From assembly GCA_041661045.1 (NCBI GenBank), contig JBAZVE010000001.1, forward strand, positions 660,001 to 692,000: a DNA stretch of 32,000 nt. Direction: 5' to 3'. Shown piece after piece: positions 3,072 through 13,104 of this stretch (position 1 is the first letter of the stretch; the number at the start of each line of letters is the position of its first letter). The notes below the pieces were generated by a model, which was not told where the DNA came from, made no database searches, and saw only the letters and a program-made list of their open reading frames with translations. Source of the stretch: Candidatus Saccharimonadota bacterium. GTDB lineage: Bacteria > Patescibacteriota > Gracilibacteria > UBA1369 > 2-02-FULL-48-14. Made by a program: the position numbers and the translations under genes.

Positions 3072-3737
3072 ATGGACATCAAAATTCACGAATCATGGAA
3101 ACGGCACTTGGGTGCAGAATTTGAAAAGCCCTACTTTAAAGACTTGGTGGAATTTGTCCGTGCGGAGTACGCTGTGAAGAAAGTTTTTCCGGCACCTGCG
3201 AATATTTTTCGTGCCTTTGAACTGTGTCCGTTTGAAGAAGTTAAAGTTGTGATCTTGGGCCAGGATCCGTACCACGGACCGGGGCAGGCGAATGGACTGT
3301 GTTTTTCTGTGAATTCGGGTGTGCAAATGCCGCCGTCGCTCCAAAATATTTTTAAGGAAATTCAGGCGGATTTGGGTGGGATTCTCCGCACGGAGGGTTG
3401 TTTGGATGACTGGGCGCGGCAGGGGATTTTGCTCCTCAATGCCACGCTCACGGTGCAAGCGCATCAAGCGGGTTCGCATCAAAAAAAAGGTTGGGAACCC
3501 TTCACGGATGCGGTGGTGGAAGCCCTTTCGCGCGAAAAAGAAAATTTGGTTTTTATTTTGTGGGGGAGGTACGCGCAAGAAAAAGGCGCGCGCATTGATG
3601 CGAGCCGGCATTTGATTTTAAAGGCGGCGCATCCTTCGCCCCTCTCCGCGTACAGTGGATTTTTTGGAAGCAAACCGTTCAGCAAAACCAACGCCTATTT
3701 GCAACAGCACGGGAAGGAAGCGGTGAAGTGGGCTTAA
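3072..3737 (+). CDS. ung: uracil-DNA glycosylase, family 1
   Basis: 221 aa. Carries the catalytic water-activating loop GQDPYHGPGQANGLCFS and the C-terminal leucine-intercalation loop region AAHPSPLSA, and has the typical family 1 UDG length. Confidence 0.95.
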   Translation: MDIKIHESWKRHLGAEFEKPYFKDLVEFVRAEYAVKKVFPAPANIFRAFELCPFEEVKVVILGQDPYHGPGQANGLCFSVNSGVQMPPSLQNIFKEIQADLGGILRTEGCLDDWARQGILLLNATLTVQAHQAGSHQKKGWEPFTDAVVEALSREKENLVFILWGRYAQEKGARIDASRHLILKAAHPSPLSAYSGFFGSKPFSKTNAYLQQHGKEAVKWA

Positions 3738-4639
3738 TCAGTGAACGAGAAGCTTTCAAGAAAGTGAGCGAAAGCCTCAGGCTCGCCGGTGGGTTCTACT
3801 AGCACGATATCATAAATGAGTCCGTTTTCTCGCTCCATCATGATGGTGTCAAAAAGGCCAAACGCATTACTGGACCAAGTGTAAGCGGTTTCTCCATCCA
3901 GTTGAATTTCTTTGACAGGGCTAACTCTGGAACCCCAGCGAGTGTCGTCACTCATGATCCATTCTTCAAATGTTAAACCTTCTTGCTCGTATTCATATGA
4001 AGTGGGGGTGTTCACGGTAATATTTAAATCCCATCGCCAGTACTCAGTTCCGTCATGGAGCTCCGCCTCTTTTTTGCGCTCCATTGAAACTGCTCCTAGG
4101 CTGTTGCTACATCCTTCGGTATCGATCTCCCAGTCTTTGGGGAGCTCAAATGAAAAATCATATTCTTCAAAGGTCACCAATTGCCAGCTTTCGTTTAAAA
4201 TTTCTGTTGTGGCGCCATCTTCGGTACAGGGGATGGTCTCTGTGATTTCATCACTGATTTTACTCTCTTCCACTTTAATCTCTTCTTCCTCTTGCACGGT
4301 TTCCCATACGCTGTCGATCTCTTGCTCAATGATCAATACATCTTCTTCCAGCTCCTCAATTTTTTCATTTTGATATTGTATGAACAGCATACCGCCCACG
4401 AGAGTCGCGAAGGCAAGAATGAATTTAACTTTTGAATTGAGCTTGGTTTCTTCGTTAGTGATTTTGTAGACCAACCAACTCACGCCAAAAAGAACGAATG
4501 AGATTAGTACGGTGTGTAAAATTTTGATGATTAACGGATACTGATAATTGTATTCTCCACTGCCAACAATAAGGATGGCTGCGATGAGCGCCACAAGATA
4601 TGCGATGAAGGGATTGTTTTTGAGATCAACGATTTTCAT
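3734..4639 (-). CDS. hypothetical membrane protein (three N-terminal TM helices, acidic linker, C-terminal globular domain)
   Basis: 301-aa ORF. TM-like segments are FIAYLVALIAAILIVG, LIIKILHTVLISFVLFGVSWLVY and FILAFATLVGGMLFI, followed by a Glu-rich linker (EELEEDVLIIEQEIDSVWETVQEEEEIKVEE). No recognisable motif. Its stop shares the palindrome TTAA (3734-3737) with ung. Confidence 0.75.
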   Translation of the reverse strand: MKIVDLKNNPFIAYLVALIAAILIVGSGEYNYQYPLIIKILHTVLISFVLFGVSWLVYKITNEETKLNSKVKFILAFATLVGGMLFIQYQNEKIEELEEDVLIIEQEIDSVWETVQEEEEIKVEESKISDEITETIPCTEDGATTEILNESWQLVTFEEYDFSFELPKDWEIDTEGCSNSLGAVSMERKKEAELHDGTEYWRWDLNITVNTPTSYEYEQEGLTFEEWIMSDDTRWGSRVSPVKEIQLDGETAYTWSSNAFGLFDTIMMERENGLIYDIVLVEPTGEPEAFAHFLESFSFTD

Positions 4640-4693
4640 GAGGCTGTTTGTGAAGAAGGGTATGCGTATTGTGACGCAGGATCTTTACAAAAC

Positions 4694-5962
4694 TTACACA
4701 CCAATCTTGTCTCGTCCGCCCATGTAAGGCCGTAGCACTTCCGGAATGGTGATGCTGCCGTTGGCATTTTGGTAGATTTCCAAAATGGGAATGAGAATGC
4801 GGGGGGAGGCGATGCAGGTGTTATTGAGAGTGTGCACAAATTGCATTTTGCCGTCCTTGTCTTTGTAACGAGTGTTGAGGCGGCGAGCCTGGTAATCCAG
4901 GAAGGTGGAACAAGAATGGGTTTCACCGTAACTTTCGCGAGAGGGCATCCAAGTTTCGATGTCGTTTTTGTAGTATTGGCCTTGTCCCATGTCTCCGCCA
5001 CAAACCGCTACCACGCGGTAGGGGAGCTTGAGGTCCTGCAAAACTTCCTCAGCATTTTTTAGGAGAAAAGCGTGCATTTTTTTACTTTCTTCCATGTCAT
5101 TTTTACACAGGACCACTTGTTCGATTTTTTGGAATTGGTGAATGCGGTAAAGCCCGTGTGTGTCTTTTCCGTAAGTTCCGGCTTCACGACGGAAACAGTT
5201 GGAATAGCCCGCGTAGAGTTTGGGTAGTTCATCTTCTTTCAAAATTTCGTCGCTGTGGTAAGAAGCCACGGCCACTTCGCTGGTTCCAATCAAATATTTT
5301 TCATCGCGTTCCATGGTGTAGGCTTGTTCCTCTCCGCCCGGAAAATATCCGGTGCCTTCCATGGCCTCACGGTTCACCAGGAGCGGGGGAAGGAAGGGGG
5401 TGAAGCCTTTGGCCACGAGTTTATTGAGGGTGTATTGCAAAATGGCGAGTTCCAAAAGCATGCCGTCATTCTTTAAAAAGTAGCTTCGACTTCCGCCGAT
5501 TTTCACTCCTCGGTCGATGTCCACAAGGTCCAGGTCTTTGCCCAGGGTCATGTGATCTTTAGGCTTAAAATCAAATTTTGGAAGTTCGCCCCAGGTGTAA
5601 AGTTCCACATTTTCCGTGTCGTCTTTGCCCTCGGGAGCATCGGGAGAAATGAGTCCCGGAGCGCGGAGCATGAGGGCTTTCCATTCGGTTTCCACTTCAT
5701 TCAAAGCTTCGCTCACGGTTTTTTCACTGTCCCCTTGAGCGCGCATTTCGGCAATGGCTGCTTGCTTTTCTTCGCCGCTGAGTTTTTGGATTTTGTCGGA
5801 AGCCTTGTTTTTTTCTGCGCGAAGTGTGTCTAGTTCAGCCTGTAAACTGCGGCGTTTTTCATCGACTTCAATAAATCGATCCACGGCAAAATCGATCCGT
5901 TTTTTGCGAGCCGCTTCACGGACGAGTTCAGGATTTTGGACAATGAATTTTGGGTCGAGCAT
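4694..5962 (-). CDS. serS: seryl-tRNA synthetase
   Basis: The ORF track extends to 6106, but the conserved SerRS N-terminus MLDPKFIVQNPELV starts at ATG 5962 (cat at 5960-5962), giving 422 aa. It has an N-terminal coiled-coil arm and the class II motif-2-like CFRREAGTYGKDTHGLYRIHQF. The upstream extension would overlap the preceding gene. Confidence 0.93.
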   Translation of the reverse strand: MLDPKFIVQNPELVREAARKKRIDFAVDRFIEVDEKRRSLQAELDTLRAEKNKASDKIQKLSGEEKQAAIAEMRAQGDSEKTVSEALNEVETEWKALMLRAPGLISPDAPEGKDDTENVELYTWGELPKFDFKPKDHMTLGKDLDLVDIDRGVKIGGSRSYFLKNDGMLLELAILQYTLNKLVAKGFTPFLPPLLVNREAMEGTGYFPGGEEQAYTMERDEKYLIGTSEVAVASYHSDEILKEDELPKLYAGYSNCFRREAGTYGKDTHGLYRIHQFQKIEQVVLCKNDMEESKKMHAFLLKNAEEVLQDLKLPYRVVAVCGGDMGQGQYYKNDIETWMPSRESYGETHSCSTFLDYQARRLNTRYKDKDGKMQFVHTLNNTCIASPRILIPILEIYQNANGSITIPEVLRPYMGGRDKIGV

Positions 5963-6009
5963 TTTTTGCAAACTTAAAAAGTGCTGAGAGGATAGCGCGA
6001 AAGGAGGGA

Positions 6010-9000
6010 TTAGACAAGAAGAGGTGCCAGCTTCATTAGATCCTTCAGTTCGAGTTCCTGAAGAAAGGGAGCCATGAGCCCTAAAGCACGGAAACAATGA
6101 ACCCATTCTTCTTTGAGTTCAATTTGTTCTGAACGGCAGAAGTCAAAAAATTCTGTTACATTCTGATTTAGGCTTGCCAGGCTTACTTTTTCACTGCCAT
6201 GGCGTTGAAGCCAAACATTAATTTTATCTTTGAGGTCGGGATGAGCACTTTGCTCTATGATGGATGCCAAAAAAAGACCTAAAGCCATGGGTTTTGAAGC
6301 CAAGGGGTTAATCAATTTTTTAAATAAATTTCGTAAGTTGGTGACGGCTTCCGTGCTTAGCTGACCTAGGTTCCCTGGGTCGATCCAAACAATGGACGCG
6401 GAGGTCGGCCCCGATTTTCTTTGGATGATCATGTTCCCTGGATTTAAATCGGCATGGTAAGACTTGCCACTTAGTATGAGTCTTAAGTTTGCTAAGGCTA
6501 CTTCCTTTTTCAAAGCTTTTGGGTCCAGTCCCAGCTTCCCAATTGCACCATCGTCATCAATTGAACAGCCTTTAATCAACTCTAAGATCAAAGCATCTTC
6601 GCTCTGAGTGACAGGTTGATCAGCACTATCCAATAGGCCTCTTTTCACTAGAGGTGTGCGGATTCCTTCGATCCGTTCTATATGCAAACCCGCGTTTAAG
6701 CTCTCGTAATTGTTTCGTTCATTCCCCATGGAAAGCTCCTCTTTTATTTGCTGCTTAACAATGGTTGCCAGATTAGTAGGTAGGCTGATTGGAAAGAGCC
6801 TTTTCCCTGAATGAGTGGCAGTATTAAAGTGCTCAACCAACGAAGCCAGGACTTGAGCATCCTCCTCCAGTTCCAAATCCAACCAGGAGTGGATTTTTTT
6901 ATAAGCGACCCTTTCTCCGGAATGTAGTTCTGCTTCATATACGGCTGCCATGGATCCCTCCGCAATTTTCCGTCCGATTTCTTTTAAAGGACTTCTTCCC
7001 CCAAAGGCTTGATTGGAGAGTTCATAGACCAAAACCTTATCAGCGTGTTGATTTTGATCGGATAATTTTCTAAAAGCGTGTCTCCACTCTTCCGGCAAAT
7101 CTCTGACTTGTGTGGCGATGTACTGTCCTGCTTTAATCATTATGCCTCCGTATGCTTGCATGATGGATGCCAATGCTTCCGGAACGGAGTGGATATTATC
7201 TGAGGTCATTAATGTCCAAATATCGTGAAAGATAGCAGGAAGTTTTTCTTGTGGACATGTCAGAAGAAATACATTTAGTAAGGATTTACAGGCTTGTCTT
7301 CCATTCTCATCCAACTGATTGGTAACTCCTTCTTTTCTGTCTACAAGCAATCGTACAACTTCTTGAACAAACTTCTCTTTTCGTTTCCCATTCATTGCTC
7401 CTTTTGGAGCAATAAGTAGCTCGGTTAATAGATTGATGCGATCTTGCTTTGAGAAGCTCACGCCAGCGCGCATTGCCTCCTCTAAGTTTATTCCTAAAGA
7501 GAGCTCGATCATCACTCCGAGTGAGGGTTTGCTCAGGAGGAAGTCATCGAGTTCGTACCCTTTTGCAAACTTTAATGACTGTTCTTTTAAGTTGCCATAT
7601 AAGGCTTGTATGCGGTACGGGGTTACCTTCTTGAACTCATAAATGTTTTCTTCCAAGTATAAATTGGTGGCTTTGAATAAAAAGCGTCTCTTGCCGAGCA
7701 AATAGAGTAATATTTCTTCACGGTCGAGGCTATCGACTTTTTCGATGGTGTCCATCAGTGTTTCAGTTCGCACTACAGTTTGTCTTTTTCTCTTTTCTGT
7801 GGATAAGAGTGCGGGTGTTTGATAGAGCTTGGACAGTGCTAAGGTGTCCTCCTCTGTCTGTGCTTGGTCAATGAGTGTGCGAAGCTTTTCATCCCTTTCT
7901 GCACAAGGGTATGGGAAGCAAGAGATCAACTCTTTCAAGGCTCGATTTGCTCTTAAGTGAGGTGGAACTTCAGCTAAAACTTCATTTAAGTAAGTTTCAT
8001 CAAATGGGATTATGCACTGATCCTTTAGTTCCCATAAACGAGAGGAAGCGGCAAGTATAAAAATAGGATTCTTAAAATGTCGCGCAAAACGTGTCAACAG
8101 GTTGGGATCTTCAAGGGCTTGAATTTTGGTCACTACTGTTTCAATCTCGTGGGTATAGTGAATGGTGGGCCACCCCACAGAGCGCATGAGCCAGAGATCT
8201 CGCTCCAAACATTGACTTGAATAGCATCCCACCAAATAATCAATCGCTTCTGTACCCGTTTTTGTTAACCAGTCTTTATAATGGGAACTAAACTCCCAAA
8301 ATAAATCTTCCACAGCGAAACCAACTGAACTTAAGGATTCAGTGTAAGGAACAGCACGCCGTTTTGTGCCAGAAAAATAGGCTAGAGCTGTTTCTTCACC
8401 CAAAGCACCCACCATCATTCTCGGATCTTCCCAAAAATTGAGATCTGAAATTTCATGGTCGCCAAGTGTGGCTCGTGCAGCCACATTAAAAGCCCTCCTT
8501 TTCATTTGTTCGTCAAAAAATGCACTTGCTTCACTCTCGTTTGATAATGCATGAATGGTGTCGTGTATTGTTTTGATCCAATAATCGTGGAGATCTACCA
8601 CATCAAACTCTATTCCTTGTTCTTTTAAAATCTCTTCGACTTCGTCTTTCGGTTTCCCAATTAAGAGCTGAGCTGGGATCCGAACCACAAAATATTCGTG
8701 TTTGTTTTTTTCAATTTGGATTGAGTCTCCGTTGGAAACAAGGACGATTTTCCCTAAGAAGGACTTCTTCCCCTCTTGTATGCGTACAGAAAAGTTTGAA
8801 GAATAGAGGGGGCGTGGCGCGGTTGACCTAGGAGAAGCAATTTTTCCTCCGGTATAACTCAATTGCCAGTCTTTATTCAAGTACATTGTGCCAAAAAATT
8901 CCTCCGCGATGAAGCCGTAACGCGATAGTTTTTCTTCAAACCACTGTCTATCCTTCGCTTTTAATAGTTCGCGCGCCGCATCGTGGGCAATGTACGGGAA

Positions 9001-10269
9001 AAATACTCCATTATTCCTGTAAAAATTTTCAGCGAGATCTAAAAGTGGATCAAAATCAGGCTCTTTGCTTAAGTAGACTTCGACCAGAATGGCCATTACT
9101 CCGTAAACCATTCCAGGCACTTTGCTTACGCCTTTACCTCTGGACAAGCACCGTTTTGGGTCTAGGTTCATGAGTTCTAATAGGTCTTGAGGGCTCAAGG
9201 CTTGCAATTGTTCTCTTATGTCATCCTGTTCAACTTCATCAAAAGCAGAAAGCATTGCGGCACGCCACCATTCATCCTTGAGGTTGGAAGTTAAGCCCTC
9301 GACATTCACATTTGAAGCGAAAATGCCGCTGGATAGAGTGGGGTCATCGTAAACGATGTCTTTAGGGTTGATGTAATCATTACCACTAAGGTGGAAGTTC
9401 ATCCATCGGGTAGGTATTTCCCACTCCACGCGTTTCCGATGAAAATCTGAATGTTTTGCGGGTGATAATGTGTGTTTGGGATCGTAGCGGAGTGTGCTGG
9501 AATAAAACGCTCGTCGTAAACGCTTAAGCTGCTGAAGGCGACGGGTGGTCATGGGATGGGTACTAAGAAGAGAACTGAAGACGATAGTTTCGGCTGCTTT
9601 AAGAGCTTTTCCTTGTTCCGAATCGAGTATTTCGTGGGCGTCGATTACACATTGTGGGTCTACCCCTAATCTAGTCATCAAGTACACAGACAGTCGATCT
9701 ACGCAGTACTCTTCTTCATAGCTATCAATGTGGTTAAGAAGGAATTCTGTAGCTGCGCTTGCTATTTCGAGATGTTCTTTGTTCGAGAAAAACAGATGTG
9801 CCAATTCGTGAGCCAATACCCCCAATATTTTGTCATGTTCGTAGTTGAGTGAATGGATTAGGGATGAGGAAATGTAAACTGTGCGAGTGGTTTTTACGAT
9901 GGATGCATTGGGTACATTATCTTCGTCTTCATAAACTCTTATATTTTGAATCAAACCTGGGTATCCTGCCACTTCACTCAGTTCATCCACTATCGATTTA
10001 AGCTCGGTTAATATCGGGTGATCTTCTCTTAACACCACGCTAAAATTTCTGACATTGGCATCGAACCCTTCACCTAAGACGCGGTCTTCATTTGATGGTT
10101 CTATGATGGGGAGTTCGGCAATGGGTGGGTAGGTCTTTTTTGCCGTGACACTCACCAAGGCTTCCTTAAAGGCAAGGTCAGATTGGACTTTAGTGAAATC
10201 TGTAGAATCTGGAGCTTGAGCTTGCTTACCCATTTCCTCCAAATGGGTGGGTTTCTTTTTATCACTCAT
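6010..10269 (-). CDS. giant multidomain protein: N-terminal M48-like Zn-metalloprotease module, ~790-aa unknown middle, C-terminal UbiB/ABC1-family atypical kinase module
   Basis: Uninterrupted 1419-aa ORF. The N-terminal module has HELAH at nt 9796-9810, followed by EEEYCVDRL and STHPMTTRRLQQL (M48/HtpX-type order). The C-terminal 375 aa (nt 6013-7137) carry KAGQ (7123-7134, the KxGQ signature), VAYKK, HADLNPGN (6433-6456) and IDPGNLGQL, matching UbiB motifs such as HADMHPGN. Confidence 0.8.
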   Translation of the reverse strand: MSDKKKPTHLEEMGKQAQAPDSTDFTKVQSDLAFKEALVSVTAKKTYPPIAELPIIEPSNEDRVLGEGFDANVRNFSVVLREDHPILTELKSIVDELSEVAGYPGLIQNIRVYEDEDNVPNASIVKTTRTVYISSSLIHSLNYEHDKILGVLAHELAHLFFSNKEHLEIASAATEFLLNHIDSYEEEYCVDRLSVYLMTRLGVDPQCVIDAHEILDSEQGKALKAAETIVFSSLLSTHPMTTRRLQQLKRLRRAFYSSTLRYDPKHTLSPAKHSDFHRKRVEWEIPTRWMNFHLSGNDYINPKDIVYDDPTLSSGIFASNVNVEGLTSNLKDEWWRAAMLSAFDEVEQDDIREQLQALSPQDLLELMNLDPKRCLSRGKGVSKVPGMVYGVMAILVEVYLSKEPDFDPLLDLAENFYRNNGVFFPYIAHDAARELLKAKDRQWFEEKLSRYGFIAEEFFGTMYLNKDWQLSYTGGKIASPRSTAPRPLYSSNFSVRIQEGKKSFLGKIVLVSNGDSIQIEKNKHEYFVVRIPAQLLIGKPKDEVEEILKEQGIEFDVVDLHDYWIKTIHDTIHALSNESEASAFFDEQMKRRAFNVAARATLGDHEISDLNFWEDPRMMVGALGEETALAYFSGTKRRAVPYTESLSSVGFAVEDLFWEFSSHYKDWLTKTGTEAIDYLVGCYSSQCLERDLWLMRSVGWPTIHYTHEIETVVTKIQALEDPNLLTRFARHFKNPIFILAASSRLWELKDQCIIPFDETYLNEVLAEVPPHLRANRALKELISCFPYPCAERDEKLRTLIDQAQTEEDTLALSKLYQTPALLSTEKRKRQTVVRTETLMDTIEKVDSLDREEILLYLLGKRRFLFKATNLYLEENIYEFKKVTPYRIQALYGNLKEQSLKFAKGYELDDFLLSKPSLGVMIELSLGINLEEAMRAGVSFSKQDRINLLTELLIAPKGAMNGKRKEKFVQEVVRLLVDRKEGVTNQLDENGRQACKSLLNVFLLTCPQEKLPAIFHDIWTLMTSDNIHSVPEALASIMQAYGGIMIKAGQYIATQVRDLPEEWRHAFRKLSDQNQHADKVLVYELSNQAFGGRSPLKEIGRKIAEGSMAAVYEAELHSGERVAYKKIHSWLDLELEEDAQVLASLVEHFNTATHSGKRLFPISLPTNLATIVKQQIKEELSMGNERNNYESLNAGLHIERIEGIRTPLVKRGLLDSADQPVTQSEDALILELIKGCSIDDDGAIGKLGLDPKALKKEVALANLRLILSGKSYHADLNPGNMIIQRKSGPTSASIVWIDPGNLGQLSTEAVTNLRNLFKKLINPLASKPMALGLFLASIIEQSAHPDLKDKINVWLQRHGSEKVSLASLNQNVTEFFDFCRSEQIELKEEWVHCFRALGLMAPFLQELELKDLMKLAPLLV

Positions 10270-10303: not shown

Positions 10304-10332
10304 ATTATAGCATATTTTAAAAGGTTCCACAA
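10304..10332 (-). promoter_or_regulatory. candidate extended -10 promoter for the giant ORF (TTGTGG-17 nt-TGC-TATAAT on the minus strand)
   Basis: Read on the minus strand: TTGTGG (10332-10327), a 17-nt spacer ending in TGC (10312-10310), then a perfect TATAAT (10309-10304). This lies 34 nt upstream of ATG 10269. A weak hairpin, AGGTT-TGTGG-AACCT (10322-10336), overlaps the -35 region and could act as a leaky terminator after the 137-aa gene. Confidence 0.4.
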
Positions 10333-10389: not shown

Positions 10390-10803
10390 TTATTTGCCTT
10401 TCTTTTCAACCTTAACTATGGGAAGTCGTTTCACCAAAACTTGTTTTCCCTCAAAAAGAATCTGCAGTTCAATGTTTTCCCAAGTCTCTATTTTAAGACC
10501 TTGAATGCCCCAAAAATGCATGTGAGAGATGAGTGGTTTTTCCACTTCCTTTTCCATGCTGGATTTTGCGAGCACCTTGTCTTCCTGCATCAGTGCGAAA
10601 GAAATATTGTGCTTTCCTTTTGGAATCAGAATTTTGGACACCACGAACATTTGAGGATGCATGGCCGGCACTTGTTCCGCCATGATGCGGTCAAAGATGC
10701 CCACCAAATTGACTTTTCCATCCATAGACATGGAGGCGTAGTCGCAGAACACGGCGTATTCAATGGGTTGGATGCGGACACTTTTTTTAGGTTCGTCGGG
10801 CAT
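10390..10803 (-). CDS. hypothetical protein, 137 aa, immediately downstream of dnaK
   Basis: ATG at 10803, 28 nt after the dnaK stop, on the same strand. The sequence looks beta-rich (IEYAVFCDYASMSMDGKVNLVGIFDRI...FVVSKILIPKGKHNISFALM) with a Lys-rich tail VKVEKKGK. It has no J-domain HPD motif and no alpha-crystallin signature. Confidence 0.7.
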   Translation of the reverse strand: MPDEPKKSVRIQPIEYAVFCDYASMSMDGKVNLVGIFDRIMAEQVPAMHPQMFVVSKILIPKGKHNISFALMQEDKVLAKSSMEKEVEKPLISHMHFWGIQGLKIETWENIELQILFEGKQVLVKRLPIVKVEKKGK

Positions 10804-10831: not shown

Positions 10832-12760
10832 TTATTCCTCCTTCTTGTCTTCTGGCTCCTCTCCCTTTTCATAGACCTTTACCTCCGGATCTTCGCTTGT
10901 AGCCGCACCTTCGCCCGCAGGGCCTTCAGCATCTTCAGCCCCTGGGGCACCTGCGCCGGGTTGGCTGTACATGCTGGCGCCGATTTTTTGGATTTCTTCG
11001 GCGAGGGATTCGTGCTTGGTTTTTAAGTCTTCGGGAGAAGTTTCGGCGTTGGCAAGGGCGTCTTTGAGATCTTTGAGCTTGGCGTCCACGCCGGTTTTTA
11101 CATCGGCGGGTACTTTTTCACCCAAGTCTTTGAGTGTTCGTTCCGTTTGGGAAACCAGAGATTCCGCGTTCACTCGAATTTCCACACTGTCTTTCTTTTT
11201 CTTATCTTCTTCGGCAAATTTTTCCGCCTCTTCTTTCATCTTTTCAATTTCTTCTTTGGAGAGTCCGCCGGATCCGGTGATGGTGATGTGTTGGCTTTTC
11301 CCGCTGGCTTTGTCCACTGCTTTTACATGCAGGATTCCGTTGGCGTCGATGTCAAAAGACACTTCGATTTGAGGCACTCCGCGGGGTGCGGGAGGGATTC
11401 CGTCCAGTCCAAAATTTCCGAGCAATTTGTTGTCTGCGGCCATGGGGCGTTCCCCTTGAAAGACGCGAACATCCACGGATGGTTGGCTGTCTGCCGCAGT
11501 GGAAAACACTTGTGACTTGCTGGTGGGGATGGTGGTGTTTTTTTCGATGAGTTTGGTCATCACTCCTCCAAGCGTTTCGATTCCGAGAGAAAGTGGAATG
11601 ACATCCAAGAGCAAAATATCTTTCACATCGCCCTGCAAAACTCCCCCTTGAATGGCGGCACCCAAGGCCACCACTTCGTCAGGATTGATTCCACGGTGAG
11701 GTTCTTTTCCAAAAATTTCTTTGGCTTTGGCTTGGACGGCGGGCATGCGGGTCATTCCTCCCACGAGCACCACTTCCGCAATATCGCTCACAAAAACTTT
11801 TGAGTCTTCAATGGCTTGCTTACACGGTTTGGTGCAGCGCTCCACGAGTTCCGCGGTGAGGTCTTCCAACTTGCTTCGGCTGAGTTTCATCACCAAGTGT
11901 TTTGGACCATTCTTGTCCGCGGTGATGAAGGGTAAATTGATGTCGGTTTCGTGTTGAGAGGAAAGCTCGATCTTTGCTTTTTCGGCCGCTTCTTTGAGGC
12001 GTTGCAGTGCCACATTGTCGCTTTTGAGGTCGATGCCTTCTTGTTTTTTGAATTCATCAGCGAGGTAATCCATGAGCACCATATCAAAATCATCTCCTCC
12101 CAAAAAGGTGTCTCCATTGGTGGACAGCACCTGGAAAACGCCGTCTCCCAATTCCAAAATGGAGATATCAAAAGTTCCTCCTCCAAGGTCGAATACGGCA
12201 ATCTTCTTTTCACCCACATGTTTGTCCAGACCATAAGCCAGAGCGGCCGCGGTGGGTTCGTTGATGATTCTTTCGACTTTGAGACCGGCAATTTCTCCCG
12301 CATCTTTTGTGGCTTGTCGTTGAGAGTCGTTGAAGTAAGCGGGCACGGTGATGACCGCTCGAGTGACCTCTCCGCCCAGATATTTTTCTGCGTCGGCCTT
12401 CACTTTTTGCAAGACCATGGCAGAGATTTCTTGAGGTTGTTTTTCTTCACCGTCGAGCACAATCACAGCCTCCCCATTTTTTCCTTTTTTCACTTCAAAA
12501 GGGAAGCGGTCGGTGATTTTTTTCACTTCGTCGTATTTGCGACCGATGAGCCGTTTTGCGGAGAAAATGGTGTTTCGTTCATTCATCACCATTTGGCGTT
12601 TTGCAGGTTCACCCACGAGTCTTTCTTTGTCCTTTATCGCCACAATAGAAGGGGTGGTTTGCTTGCCCTCGCTATTGGCGATTACGGTGGGTTCACCACC
12701 TTCCATTACTGCAAAACAGGTGTTGGTGGTTCCAAGGTCGATTCCAATGATTTTTGACAT
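10832..12760 (-). CDS. dnaK: molecular chaperone DnaK (Hsp70)
   Basis: The ORF track extends to 12805, but the conserved N-terminus [14 protein letters not shown] begins at ATG 12760 and the extra 15 codons run into the promoter/CIRCE region. Motifs present: [22 protein letters not shown], and an acidic C-terminal tail. 642 aa. Confidence 0.97.
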
Positions 12761-12798: not shown

Positions 12799-12825
12799 TT
12801 AGCACTCACTATATTAGTGTGCTAA
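12799..12825 (-). promoter_or_regulatory. CIRCE operator (HrcA binding site) upstream of dnaK
   Basis: TTAGCACTC-ACTATATTA-GTGTGCTAA matches 17 of the 18 arm positions of the CIRCE consensus TTAGCACTC-N9-GAGTGCTAA. It lies 38 nt upstream of the dnaK ATG, and hrcA is encoded 0.8 kb upstream. Confidence 0.9.
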
Positions 12826-12849: not shown

Positions 12850-13104
12850 TTATTCGGGGAGAATGCGGGTTCCTCTAACGCTTCTTCTCACTTCATCACT
12901 TGCGCCTGGCACTTCTCGTAAGGCTGGATCAAGGTTAACGCGCCCACCTTCACCGTAGTCCACCCTTGGACCTTCCGATCTGCTGCAATCCATGCCTTCG
13001 AAATTTTCTCTGTGCAGCCGACTCCTGTCTTCCTCAGTCAATTCGTGGTTGTAGTGCTCTCTAAAATCTACCAAATTCGGGTCTTCAAGTGGATTGTATG
13101 CCAT
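12850..13104 (-). CDS. hypothetical small, highly charged protein (84 aa) between grpE and dnaK
   Basis: ATG 13104 lies 11 nt after the grpE stop on the same strand. The stop at 12850 lies just upstream of the dnaK promoter/CIRCE. The sequence is rich in E/R/D/G/P (MAYNPLEDPNLVDFREHYNHELTEEDRSRLHRENFEG...) and looks disordered. No known motif, so coding status is uncertain. Confidence 0.45.
   Translation of the reverse strand: MAYNPLEDPNLVDFREHYNHELTEEDRSRLHRENFEGMDCSRSEGPRVDYGEGGRVNLDPALREVPGASDEVRRSVRGTRILPE

Follow-up and report, generated by a model that had tools for sequence, protein, structure and literature searches.

The locus described here raises a simple question: does one bacterial gene join an M48-type zinc metalloprotease to a UbiB/ABC1-type atypical kinase in a single polypeptide and, if so, what would such a protein do? 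The gene occupies nt 6010-10269, on the minus strand, of a 32,000-nt stretch of DNA (the window; positions 660,001 to 692,000 of contig JBAZVE010000001.1, assembly GCA_041661045.1) from an uncultivated bacterium. An initial annotation, made from the sequence of the window, had reported there an uninterrupted open reading frame (ORF) of 4,260 nt, and this was borne out: the 1419 codons are intact and form a single frame that opens with ATG, closes with TAA and has no in-frame TGA, and the eight motifs quoted in the annotation were all found exactly at the residues and nucleotides assigned to them. The protein is named 'MAG: AarF/UbiB family protein [Candidatus Gracilibacteria bacterium]' in public databases and is encoded on a 1.3 Mb contig. 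It is made of three conserved parts, namely an M48 zinc metalloprotease at the N-terminus, a helical region specific to the family and, at the C-terminus, an atypical kinase/ATPase of UbiB/COQ8 fold (Table 1). As had been anticipated, a Pfam scan of the 1419-aa protein placed Peptidase_M48 at the N-terminus and ABC1 at the C-terminus, both above their curated cut-offs; besides these two, nothing was found at E <1.

The family was delimited by an exhaustive HMMER search in which residues 1-1200 were compared with 1.84 billion cluster representatives (50% identity clusters). It returned 36 other proteins below 1e-29. The resulting 37 sequences, query included, comprise 27 full-length proteins (1399-1678 aa) and 10 shorter fragments. 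All 27 full-length members are colinear and carry both M48 and ABC1, and the 10 sequences without M48 match are exactly the truncated ones. Word-indexed homologue searches with the full-length protein, the family profile or the helical block gave the query itself, unrelated UbiB proteins, or nothing. By tblastn, the gene was located at 8 loci in species-representative genomes and at 15 in metagenomes; the match extended from query residue <=110 to >=1403 at 17 of these loci, the others being cut by a contig end or partial. The source of the window is a metagenome-assembled genome (MAG), but we found nothing in favour of an artefact, either a chimeric assembly or separate genes fused by frameshift. 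An artefact is countered by the independent Logan assembly of run SRR18595301, where the identical protein is surrounded by the same flanking genes, by the 27 colinear full-length homologues, which come from many samples, and by the closest relative, 38% identical and likewise of 1419 aa, which was recovered on 12 contigs, contigs of about 1.23 Mb. Because the protein of the independent assembly is identical, the family colinear and the loci matched nearly end to end, a chimeric assembly or frameshift fusion is excluded for practical purposes; its probability is negligible, and the single polypeptide that had been claimed is genuine.

For the C-terminal module, the ABC1 match (PF03109) reached an E-value of 8.3e-23 and 81.2 bits, against a curated cut-off of 22.9, and the domain was matched in all 37 sequences. 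Among the motifs, GSMAAVYEAEL/VAYKK spans residues 1105-1125 and IDPGNLGQL residues 1296-1304; the nucleotide loop E1104-G-S1106-x-A1108, which lies upstream of K1124 in the chain, is invariant in the 37 sequences. In the catalytic loop, most family members have YQxDPNLGNF and not HADxHPGN. AlphaFold2 models were made in two overlapping parts. The family alignment served to build a model of residues 600-1419, which had a mean predicted local distance difference test score (pLDDT) of 85.8 and a predicted template modelling score (pTM) of 0.84; that of residues 1-1050 was more mixed (mean pLDDT 69.5, pTM 0.69). When the first of these was submitted to Foldseek, the top matches were the COQ8A structures 5I35, 7UDQ and 4PED (E 1.7e-8 to 2e-7, TM-score 0.65-0.71), the best being COQ8A/ADCK3 5I35 with an E-value of 1.7e-8 and a target-normalised TM-score of 0.70; Rv3197 and MSMEG_1954 came next, followed by the RIO kinases. 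The family profile, compared with the sequences of the PDB, also pointed to COQ8A (E 6e-20).

The Peptidase_M48 match (PF01435; E 1.4e-12; 48.3 bits, the curated cut-off being 20.3) is split in two stretches, and the domain was matched in 27 of 27 full-length family members. Residue conservation in this region was read from the alignment of residues 1-1050. In addition to HELAH, the module contains the two other M48 motifs quoted in the initial annotation, EEEYCVDRLSVYL at residues 185-197 and STHPMTTRRLQQL at residues 236-248. From what is known of the M48 family, the E187/D191 helix probably supplies the third zinc ligand. The loop that precedes H238 (residues 228-238) has a pLDDT below 50, which predicts mobility. 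In BepA, the histidine of the HP-motif loop keeps the M48 protease latent through autoinhibition; by analogy, loop 228-238 may be the equivalent of this His-switch loop. The only significant PDB matches of the 1-1050 model were E. coli BepA (6SAR; E 8e-6 over some 460 aligned columns) and 3C37, a soluble M48 peptidase of Geobacter (E 2.4e-4, target-normalised TM-score 0.59). The same two proteins were found with the family profile (E 6e-11 for 3C37, 1.5e-5 for BepA). By profile, motifs and predicted fold alike, the module is thus a predicted Zn-dependent endopeptidase of the M48 family. Both domain assignments are supported by profiles, motif conservation and predicted fold. To judge from the alignments, both catalytic centres are intact and under purifying selection, and neither module looks like a pseudoenzyme.

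The initial annotation had seen about 790 unassignable residues between the two modules. This holds in that the region has no Pfam or PDB sequence match: no Pfam match fell within residues 260-1020, whether of this protein or of any of the 37 sequences, and nothing in the PDB matched residues 260-1045 of the family profile. It does not hold in the sense of a featureless spacer, since the UbiB module is in every case preceded by a conserved helical domain. When conservation is binned by 50 residues, it is 0.13-0.19 from residue 451 to 600 and climbs to 0.37-0.47, near the level of the M48 module, from 601 to 1000. Three segments can be told apart. Following the protease core is a helical subdomain, and the BepA alignment of about 460 columns is longer than the M48 core alone. 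Then comes a linker which shows pLDDT values below 50 at 461-493 and 557-614 and a small low-confidence beta unit at about 493-532; from the N-terminus to the end of this linker, the relatives measure 593 to 865 residues. Last is the helical block (about 650-1045), which directly precedes the KxGQ helices and is contiguous with the UbiB module. Conserved positions of the block include R690-D691, R792-D793, G859, F863, P915, G926, G957 and C1005. The pTM of 0.84 obtained for residues 600-1419 suggests a defined arrangement of helical block and kinase. Foldseek searches with the helical parts of the 1-1050 model revealed non-significant similarity to solenoids of HEAT/karyopherin type only. Residues 650-1045 thus form a new conserved domain, matched by no Pfam model or PDB sequence.

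Within the block, residues 676-698 and 779-801 (approximately nt 8176-8244 and 7867-7935, minus strand) are similar segments, YLVGCYSSQCLERDLWLMRSVGW and LISCFPYPCAERDEKLRTLIDQA, each of which closes with a nearly invariant R-D. A comparison of the two sub-blocks with hhalign gave a 26-column match, 'P-x-x-S/C-x-x-R-D', with a probability of 59%, which is suggestive of an internal duplication without establishing it.

The same HMMER search uncovered a distant group of proteins of 1.2-3.4 thousand residues; of 13 scanned, 9 carry M48 and ABC1 and 4 show ABC1 without M48 match. In the giants of 1.8-3.4 thousand residues (P0041, P0047-P0049, P0051, P0054, P0057 and P0069), the order is again M48, helical block and UbiB, plus large extra regions; one of them, P0048 (MBI4397780.1, 3022 aa, 'Candidatus Omnitrophota'), bears the database name 'M48 family metalloprotease'. 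In these giant M48+UbiB proteins, the region that precedes the kinase is homologous to the helical block (hhalign probability 99%, E 2.7e-18, 284 columns). Because the block is shared with them, the M48-variable linker-helical block-UbiB architecture is older than the family of 1400-1680 aa. The initial annotation had called for a survey of the fused architecture in related genomes; with 27 full-length 50%-identity clusters and distant giants, this is a conserved family and no one-off. To determine from pairwise identities whether the parts had diverged together, M48 was compared with kinase (r = 0.59, a value reached in 0 of 2000 Mantel permutations) and helical block with kinase (r = 0.82). 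Such correlations are as expected for one ancestral fusion that evolves as a unit, and the three parts appear, on this sequence evidence, to have co-diverged as a unit.

The claim that no described protein joins the two modules also held. We found no named or characterised family, the sources saying only 'AarF/UbiB family protein' or 'M48 family metalloprotease'; full-text literature searches for the domain pair gave no description of an M48-UbiB fusion, and a full-text search for accession GCA_900089805 gave no paper. What was already known are both catalytic domain families, and the protein itself under generic database names. What is new is the conserved three-part architecture, the family-wide catalytic integrity, the unmodelled helical domain and the link to the giant relatives.

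Is the protein bound to a membrane, as HtpX-type proteases and UbiB are? The initial annotation had seen no convincing transmembrane helix, and rightly so: the highest 19-residue Kyte-Doolittle mean along the 1419 residues is 1.41. Neither a transmembrane helix nor a signal-peptide-like N-terminus was found in the family, where the highest hydropathy mean of the full-length relatives is <=1.56. Residues 1-54 are unlike a signal peptide, their hydropathy being low. The gene product is probably a soluble, cytoplasmic protein of about 160 kDa.

Table 1. Features of the fusion gene, its product and its upstream region, with nucleotide positions in the window
Feature	Position (nt)	Strand	Basis
Complete gene, 1419 codons + TAA stop	6010..10269	-	Uninterrupted frame; same protein on independent Logan contig
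N-terminal tail, residues 1-54, hydrophilic, non-conserved, predicted disordered	10108..10269	-	pLDDT <50; conservation 0.17; low hydropathy
M48 zinc-metalloprotease module, residues 60-260	9490..10092	-	Pfam PF01435; family profile; Foldseek; core pLDDT 80-93
HELAH, HExxH zinc-binding/catalytic motif, H154 E155 H158	9796..9810	-	Invariant in 27/27 full-length members
E187-Y-C-V-D191, candidate third zinc ligand helix (M48 'E..xD')	9697..9711	-	E187, Y188, D191 invariant in 27/27
H238-P-M-T-T-R-R244, M48 C-terminal 'HPxxxRR' motif	9538..9558	-	H238, P239, R243, R244 invariant in 27/27
Helical subdomain after protease, residues 328-460	8890..9288	-	pLDDT 75-91; conservation 0.28-0.33; W334, G421 nearly invariant
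Variable, length-polymorphic linker, residues 461-640	8350..8889	-	Low conservation, low pLDDT
Conserved all-helical block, family-specific, residues 650-1020	7210..8322	-	pLDDT mostly 85-95; conservation 0.37-0.47
UbiB/ABC1/COQ8-type atypical kinase/ATPase module including KxGQ helices, residues 1021-1419	6013..7209	-	PF03109; TIGR01982; Foldseek; family profile
K1046-A-G-Q1049, KxGQ signature	7123..7134	-	Q1049 invariant; K1046, G1048 in >=90% of 37
K1124, ATP-binding lysine (VAIK equivalent)	6898..6900	-	Invariant in 37
HADLNPGN catalytic loop, residues 1272-1279	6433..6456	-	D1274, N1276, G1278, N1279 invariant
D1297-P-G, metal-binding DFG equivalent	6373..6381	-	D1297 invariant
Candidate extended -10 promoter element TGCTATAAT, 35 nt upstream of ATG	10304..10312	-	Only TGNTATAAT in the 32 kb window

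Could the protein simply be a canonical UbiB involved in quinone synthesis, or a heat-shock protease of HtpX type belonging to the HrcA regulon, the rest of the chain being decoration? It is labelled AarF/UbiB by NCBI and JGI. The gene order given in the initial annotation, hrcA-grpE-dnaK-DUF6941 (137 aa)-big gene-serS, all on the minus strand, was confirmed and places the gene downstream of the heat-shock genes; no terminator-like site was found on the coding strand between dnaK and the fusion gene, so that read-through transcription is possible. The scores argue otherwise. The UbiB equivalog model TIGR01982 gave 98.3 bits against a cut-off of 487.55, in a partial match aligning residues 1027-1388, and the UbiB model NF003404 gave 55.4 bits against 667; for HtpX, the best NCBIfam score was 27 bits against an equivalog cut-off of 341, again for a partial match. 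Nor does the protein have any of the transmembrane helices of UbiB and HtpX. On these grounds we rejected it as UbiB proper, i.e. as the ubiquinone orthologue, and neither the several transmembrane helices nor the equivalog score expected of an HtpX/Ste24/Oma1-type protease was found. A role in ubiquinone synthesis is unlikely because the module falls far under the UbiB equivalog threshold and because the related Peribacteria, in their complete genomes, miss most respiratory-chain components, the mevalonate isoprenoid pathway being present (PMC4736985).

The proximity of dnaK noted in the initial annotation, and with it a heat-shock association, did not survive comparison. The dnaK context is absent at all other family loci, and the only CIRCE (HrcA operator) of the window belongs to dnaK, the fusion gene having a -10 element of its own. 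The closest relative is located away from dnaK, with a hypothetical gene and a GT4 glycosyltransferase as neighbours, and around the other loci the genes are unrelated, most of them with housekeeping or metabolic roles (rpsP, signal peptidase, coaE, GTP cyclohydrolase). An all-against-all comparison of the ORFs of 26 loci (GC 0.32-0.64) revealed no recurring neighbour except in pairs of near-identical contigs. Since no neighbour is conserved across the 26 loci and CIRCE is found only at dnaK, the adjacency to dnaK and any link to heat shock are local to this genome at most; both a conserved operon partner and membership of the heat-shock regulon were rejected. A canonical UbiB or HtpX function is thus largely refuted, and we regard it as most improbable.

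What, then, might the protein do? The reading we favour, which we see as possible at a little less than an even chance, is that of a soluble enzyme in which a COQ8-like module, gated by ATP and lipid, controls or targets a latent M48 protease. In such an enzyme the UbiB module would dock on an anionic membrane via its KxGQ face, as is thought for COQ8, and would bind a hydrophobic or prenyl-type ligand. ATP hydrolysis would drive a long-range conformational gating; the rigid helical block would pass the movement to the latent M48 protease, where the mobile loop 228-238 before the HP motif would act as the autoinhibitory His-switch loop does in BepA. The state of ATP and lipid would turn on the cleavage of membrane- or lipid-associated proteins on the cytoplasmic side, or direct it to its targets, and the outcome would be an ATP/lipid-gated quality-control or regulatory protease. 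The 'ATP-regulated protease' and 'sensor-effector' proposed in the initial annotation are both plausible. COQ8 provides the precedents: cardiolipin-containing membranes and phenolic ligands stimulate its ATPase via the KxGQ domain (10.1101/149823), and its ATP hydrolysis gates a lipid-headgroup pocket through a long-range conformational change (10.64898/2026.02.03.703536). The ATPase activity of bacterial UbiB is needed for the handling of quinone intermediates (10.64898/2026.03.05.709815). By analogy, the UbiB module of the fusion protein probably has ATPase or phosphoryl-transfer activity, gated by hydrophobic ligands as in COQ8.

Several points weigh against this proposal. Its membrane association is assumed, being taken over from COQ8, and the activity of the UbiB family is itself unsettled (ATPase, lipid chaperone, decarboxylation factor or protein kinase). 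Fusion and co-divergence are equally expected if the modules need only a shared location, and the variable linker 461-640, predicted to be disordered, would fit loosely tethered, independent modules. Protease and UbiB module might thus work independently on one lipid-associated compartment or pathway, with the fusion fixing their amounts as equal and their place as common, and with no allosteric gating. That same low-confidence linker lies between the protease half and the half made of helical block and kinase; plants and cyanobacteria have the two activities on separate polypeptides of the same lipid droplets; and 4 of the 13 distant large relatives have ABC1 and no M48 match. The fusion is nevertheless kept in every full-length member and in distant giants, and its modules co-diverge, which argues for selection on the physical link without proving allostery. 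Mere co-localisation is in our opinion somewhat doubtful.

Another way for the two modules to communicate would be phosphorylation, the UbiB module being a true protein kinase acting on the protease, on itself or on a shared substrate. The protein would then be a protease regulated by phosphorylation, or a signalling device that combines kinase and protease. The canonical residues K1124, D1274, N1279 and D1297 are all invariant, RIO and eukaryotic-like kinases are the next-best structural matches, and among plant homologues AtABC1K6 has been reported as a Mn2+-dependent protein kinase (PMC8956952), with a similar claim for ABC1K1. However, the KxGQ helices are kept, with an invariant glutamine, and in COQ8 these features favour ATPase activity over the phosphorylation of proteins and occlude the substrate cleft (10.1101/149823); moreover, the extra 370-residue helical block sits directly before the KxGQ helices. 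We consider protein-kinase signalling to be unlikely.

The distribution of the family raises a further possibility, that of a conflict system, either a single-gene anti-phage or abortive-infection defence or an effector against hosts or prey. The carriers are all uncultivated and their clusters small (1-4 members). Their source labels, assigned when short contigs were binned into MAGs, are Gracilibacteria, Peregrinibacteria, one 'Woesearchaeota' MAG, Melainabacteria/Cyanobacteria MAGs, Bdellovibrionota and Pseudomonadota/Gammaproteobacteria MAGs. The patchiness across distant lineages with host-dependent or predatory members (candidate phyla radiation (CPR), Omnitrophota, Bdellovibrionota, Melainabacteria) and with GC contents of 0.32-0.64 is what a conflict system could produce, as are the large size and multidomain nature of the protein and the fact that its gene is stand-alone with a GC slightly below that of its neighbours. 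Yet PADLOC-DB 2.0 gave no meaningful match (best E 0.009-0.014, over about 30 residues of the kinase glycine loop), PHROGs gave generic matches only, and no relative was found on viral contigs in the viral-contig scan; a defence system or a phage origin was rejected on these results. In addition, the annotated neighbours are mostly housekeeping or metabolic genes (dnaK and serS here, and those listed above elsewhere) and not defence islands, and neither a secretion signal on the protein nor an immunity-like partner next to the gene was found. A conflict system is therefore very unlikely.

Two of these loci deserve mention. The first, L004 (JACPMQ010000027.1), encodes a full-length 'M48 family metalloprotease' of 1399 aa on a 6.4 kb contig from 0.1 µm-filtered groundwater, binned as a Woesearchaeota archaeon; it is either truly archaeal or a mis-binned CPR contig. 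At the second, L006, from a Bdellovibrionota MAG, the family gene is split into an N-terminal ORF of 118 aa (3590-3946) and one of 1380 aa (4079-8221) for the rest of the protein, which may reflect a frameshift, a pseudogene or a sequencing error.

To return to the ATP/lipid-gated protease, the fusion protein can be set against the known systems it resembles. With COQ8A/ADCK3, COQ8B, yeast Coq8 and E. coli UbiB it shares the fold, KxGQ, a Ser/Ala-containing nucleotide loop and the Lys/Asp/Asn/Asp catalytic set. It is no orthologue of these proteins: it is devoid of a transmembrane anchor, a 370-residue helical block and an M48 protease precede the module, most members have the YQxDPNLGNF loop instead of HADxHPGN, and some of the hosts probably make no quinones. 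Rv3197 (MABP-1) and MSMEG_1954, the third to twelfth structural matches, are mycobacterial UbiB-fold ATP-binding proteins outside ubiquinone synthesis, known in open and closed conformations and able to bind a small molecule (erythromycin); they have neither protease nor helical block, and their sequence similarity to the fusion family is weak (profile E 0.006-0.11).

On the protease side, the M48 fold, HExxH, E..xD and HP...R are shared with BepA (E. coli YfgC) and 3C37 (Geobacter Q74D82). The likeness to BepA includes the helical subdomain after the protease core and the mobile loop before the HP-motif histidine. BepA, however, is a periplasmic protein with a signal peptide and tetratricopeptide (TPR) repeats, and a partner of the BAM complex, whereas the fusion protein has a kinase and a predicted cytoplasmic location. 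The traits of a BepA-type protein, signal peptide and TPR, were not found: the N-terminus is hydrophilic, there is no TPR match in Pfam, and the whole-chain superposition is poor (TM-score 0.33, root mean square deviation 17 Å). With FtsH (AAA+ and M41) the likeness is conceptual, an ATP-hydrolysing module and a HExxH zinc protease in one chain devoted to membrane quality control, and we take it as an analogy only. The protease is M48 and not M41, the domain order differs, and no AAA-type Pfam match was found at E <1, which sets the protein apart from the AAA+ energy-dependent proteases of FtsH/Lon type; we claim no resemblance to a ring oligomer or unfoldase.

To our knowledge, plastoglobules and cyanoglobules are the only setting where an M48 protease without transmembrane helix and UbiB-family kinases are found on one lipid-associated compartment. 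This pair, PGM48 (sll1280) and ABC1K1/3/7, is the closest biological parallel, of which the fusion protein would be the 'Rosetta stone' form; the likeness lies in the pairing. PGM48 and ABC1K are separate polypeptides of oxygenic phototrophs, on prenylquinone-rich lipid droplets, and the helical block is, as far as we know, absent from them. In Arabidopsis plastoglobules, PGM48, which has no transmembrane helix, is co-expressed with ABC1K kinases (10.1101/2021.02.05.430006), and in the cyanoglobule proteome of Synechocystis sll1280 is found together with the ABC1K kinases slr1919 and sll0005 (PMC12223511). One may go further and see in the fusion an unrecognised class of energy- and lipid-gated protease, whose engine would be a UbiB-fold ATPase and not an AAA+ ring and would act via a helical transducer. 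UbiB and M48 would then be an ancient functional pair, which would explain the PGM48-ABC1K pairing, and the output of UbiB would be a control of proteolysis independent of quinones. In this broad form the idea is rather speculative and, at present, more doubtful than probable.

The remaining observations concern the surroundings of the gene. The TGCTATAAT element noted in the initial annotation is present and, by its sequence, may function as promoter of the fusion gene; a consensus scan found no -35 partner for it. It is bracketed by an 11-nt inverted repeat (10278-10288/10347-10357, GATTAACTGCT / AGCACTTAATC, 91% complementary, 58 nt apart) which could be an operator or an RNA element. The 'atypical codons' ascribed to the gene are a mild feature: GC is 0.43 versus about 0.49 in neighbouring genes, and GC at third codon positions 0.42 versus about 0.52, but the relative synonymous codon usage distance is not raised, and the term was overstated. 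Between dnaK and the fusion gene, nt 10390-10803 (minus strand) encode the 137-aa DUF6941 protein (Pfam E 7e-18), which has no equivalent beside the relatives. On the other side, the serS ORF (4694-6106, minus strand) overlaps the 3' end of the fusion gene only via an upstream in-frame ATG; since the Seryl_tRNA_N domain begins at residue 49, translation of serS probably begins at the ATG near 5962, in which case some 47 nt separate the two genes.

The CIRCE lies at 12799-12825 (TTAGCACTC-N9-GTGTGCTAA, one mismatch), just upstream of dnaK; it overlaps the listed GTG start of that gene (12805), and the real start is probably an ATG near nt 12760. Upstream of hrcA, no CIRCE was found within 3 mismatches. 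An 84-codon ORF (12850-13104, minus strand; MAYNPLEDPNLVDFREHYNHELTEEDRSRLH...) fills the 310-nt grpE-dnaK spacer upstream of the CIRCE. Neither Rfam families nor tRNA genes were found in the window. The Gracilibacteria label could suggest an alternative genetic code, which was rejected: despite the NCBI label 'Candidatus Gracilibacteria', the code is standard since 4 of 23 genes end in TGA and table 11 leaves the long ORFs uninterrupted. The host is more consistent with CPR bacteria of Peribacteria or Peregrinibacteria type.

UbiB/ABC1/ADCK proteins are ancient, present in all domains of life and linked to human disease via COQ8A and COQ8B, and their biochemical role is debated. If the two modules are merely co-localised, what is left is a new domain architecture from little-known bacteria, of modest use for annotation. 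The fusion would be independent genomic evidence for UbiB-type and M48 enzymes acting together, as their co-residence on plant and cyanobacterial lipid droplets hints. Some of the carriers appear to be bacteria that are probably without quinones, which would separate the role of UbiB from quinone biosynthesis, and in the M48 fusion proteolysis would itself report on what the UbiB module senses or drives. If the class of gated proteases is real, the UbiB family gains a biochemical output, the control of proteolysis, that is independent of quinone biosynthesis. A soluble protein of about 160 kDa without transmembrane helix should suit biochemistry and cryo-EM. To conclude, the family may show UbiB-type enzymes acting outside quinone synthesis, and its main value is that of a tractable natural experiment.

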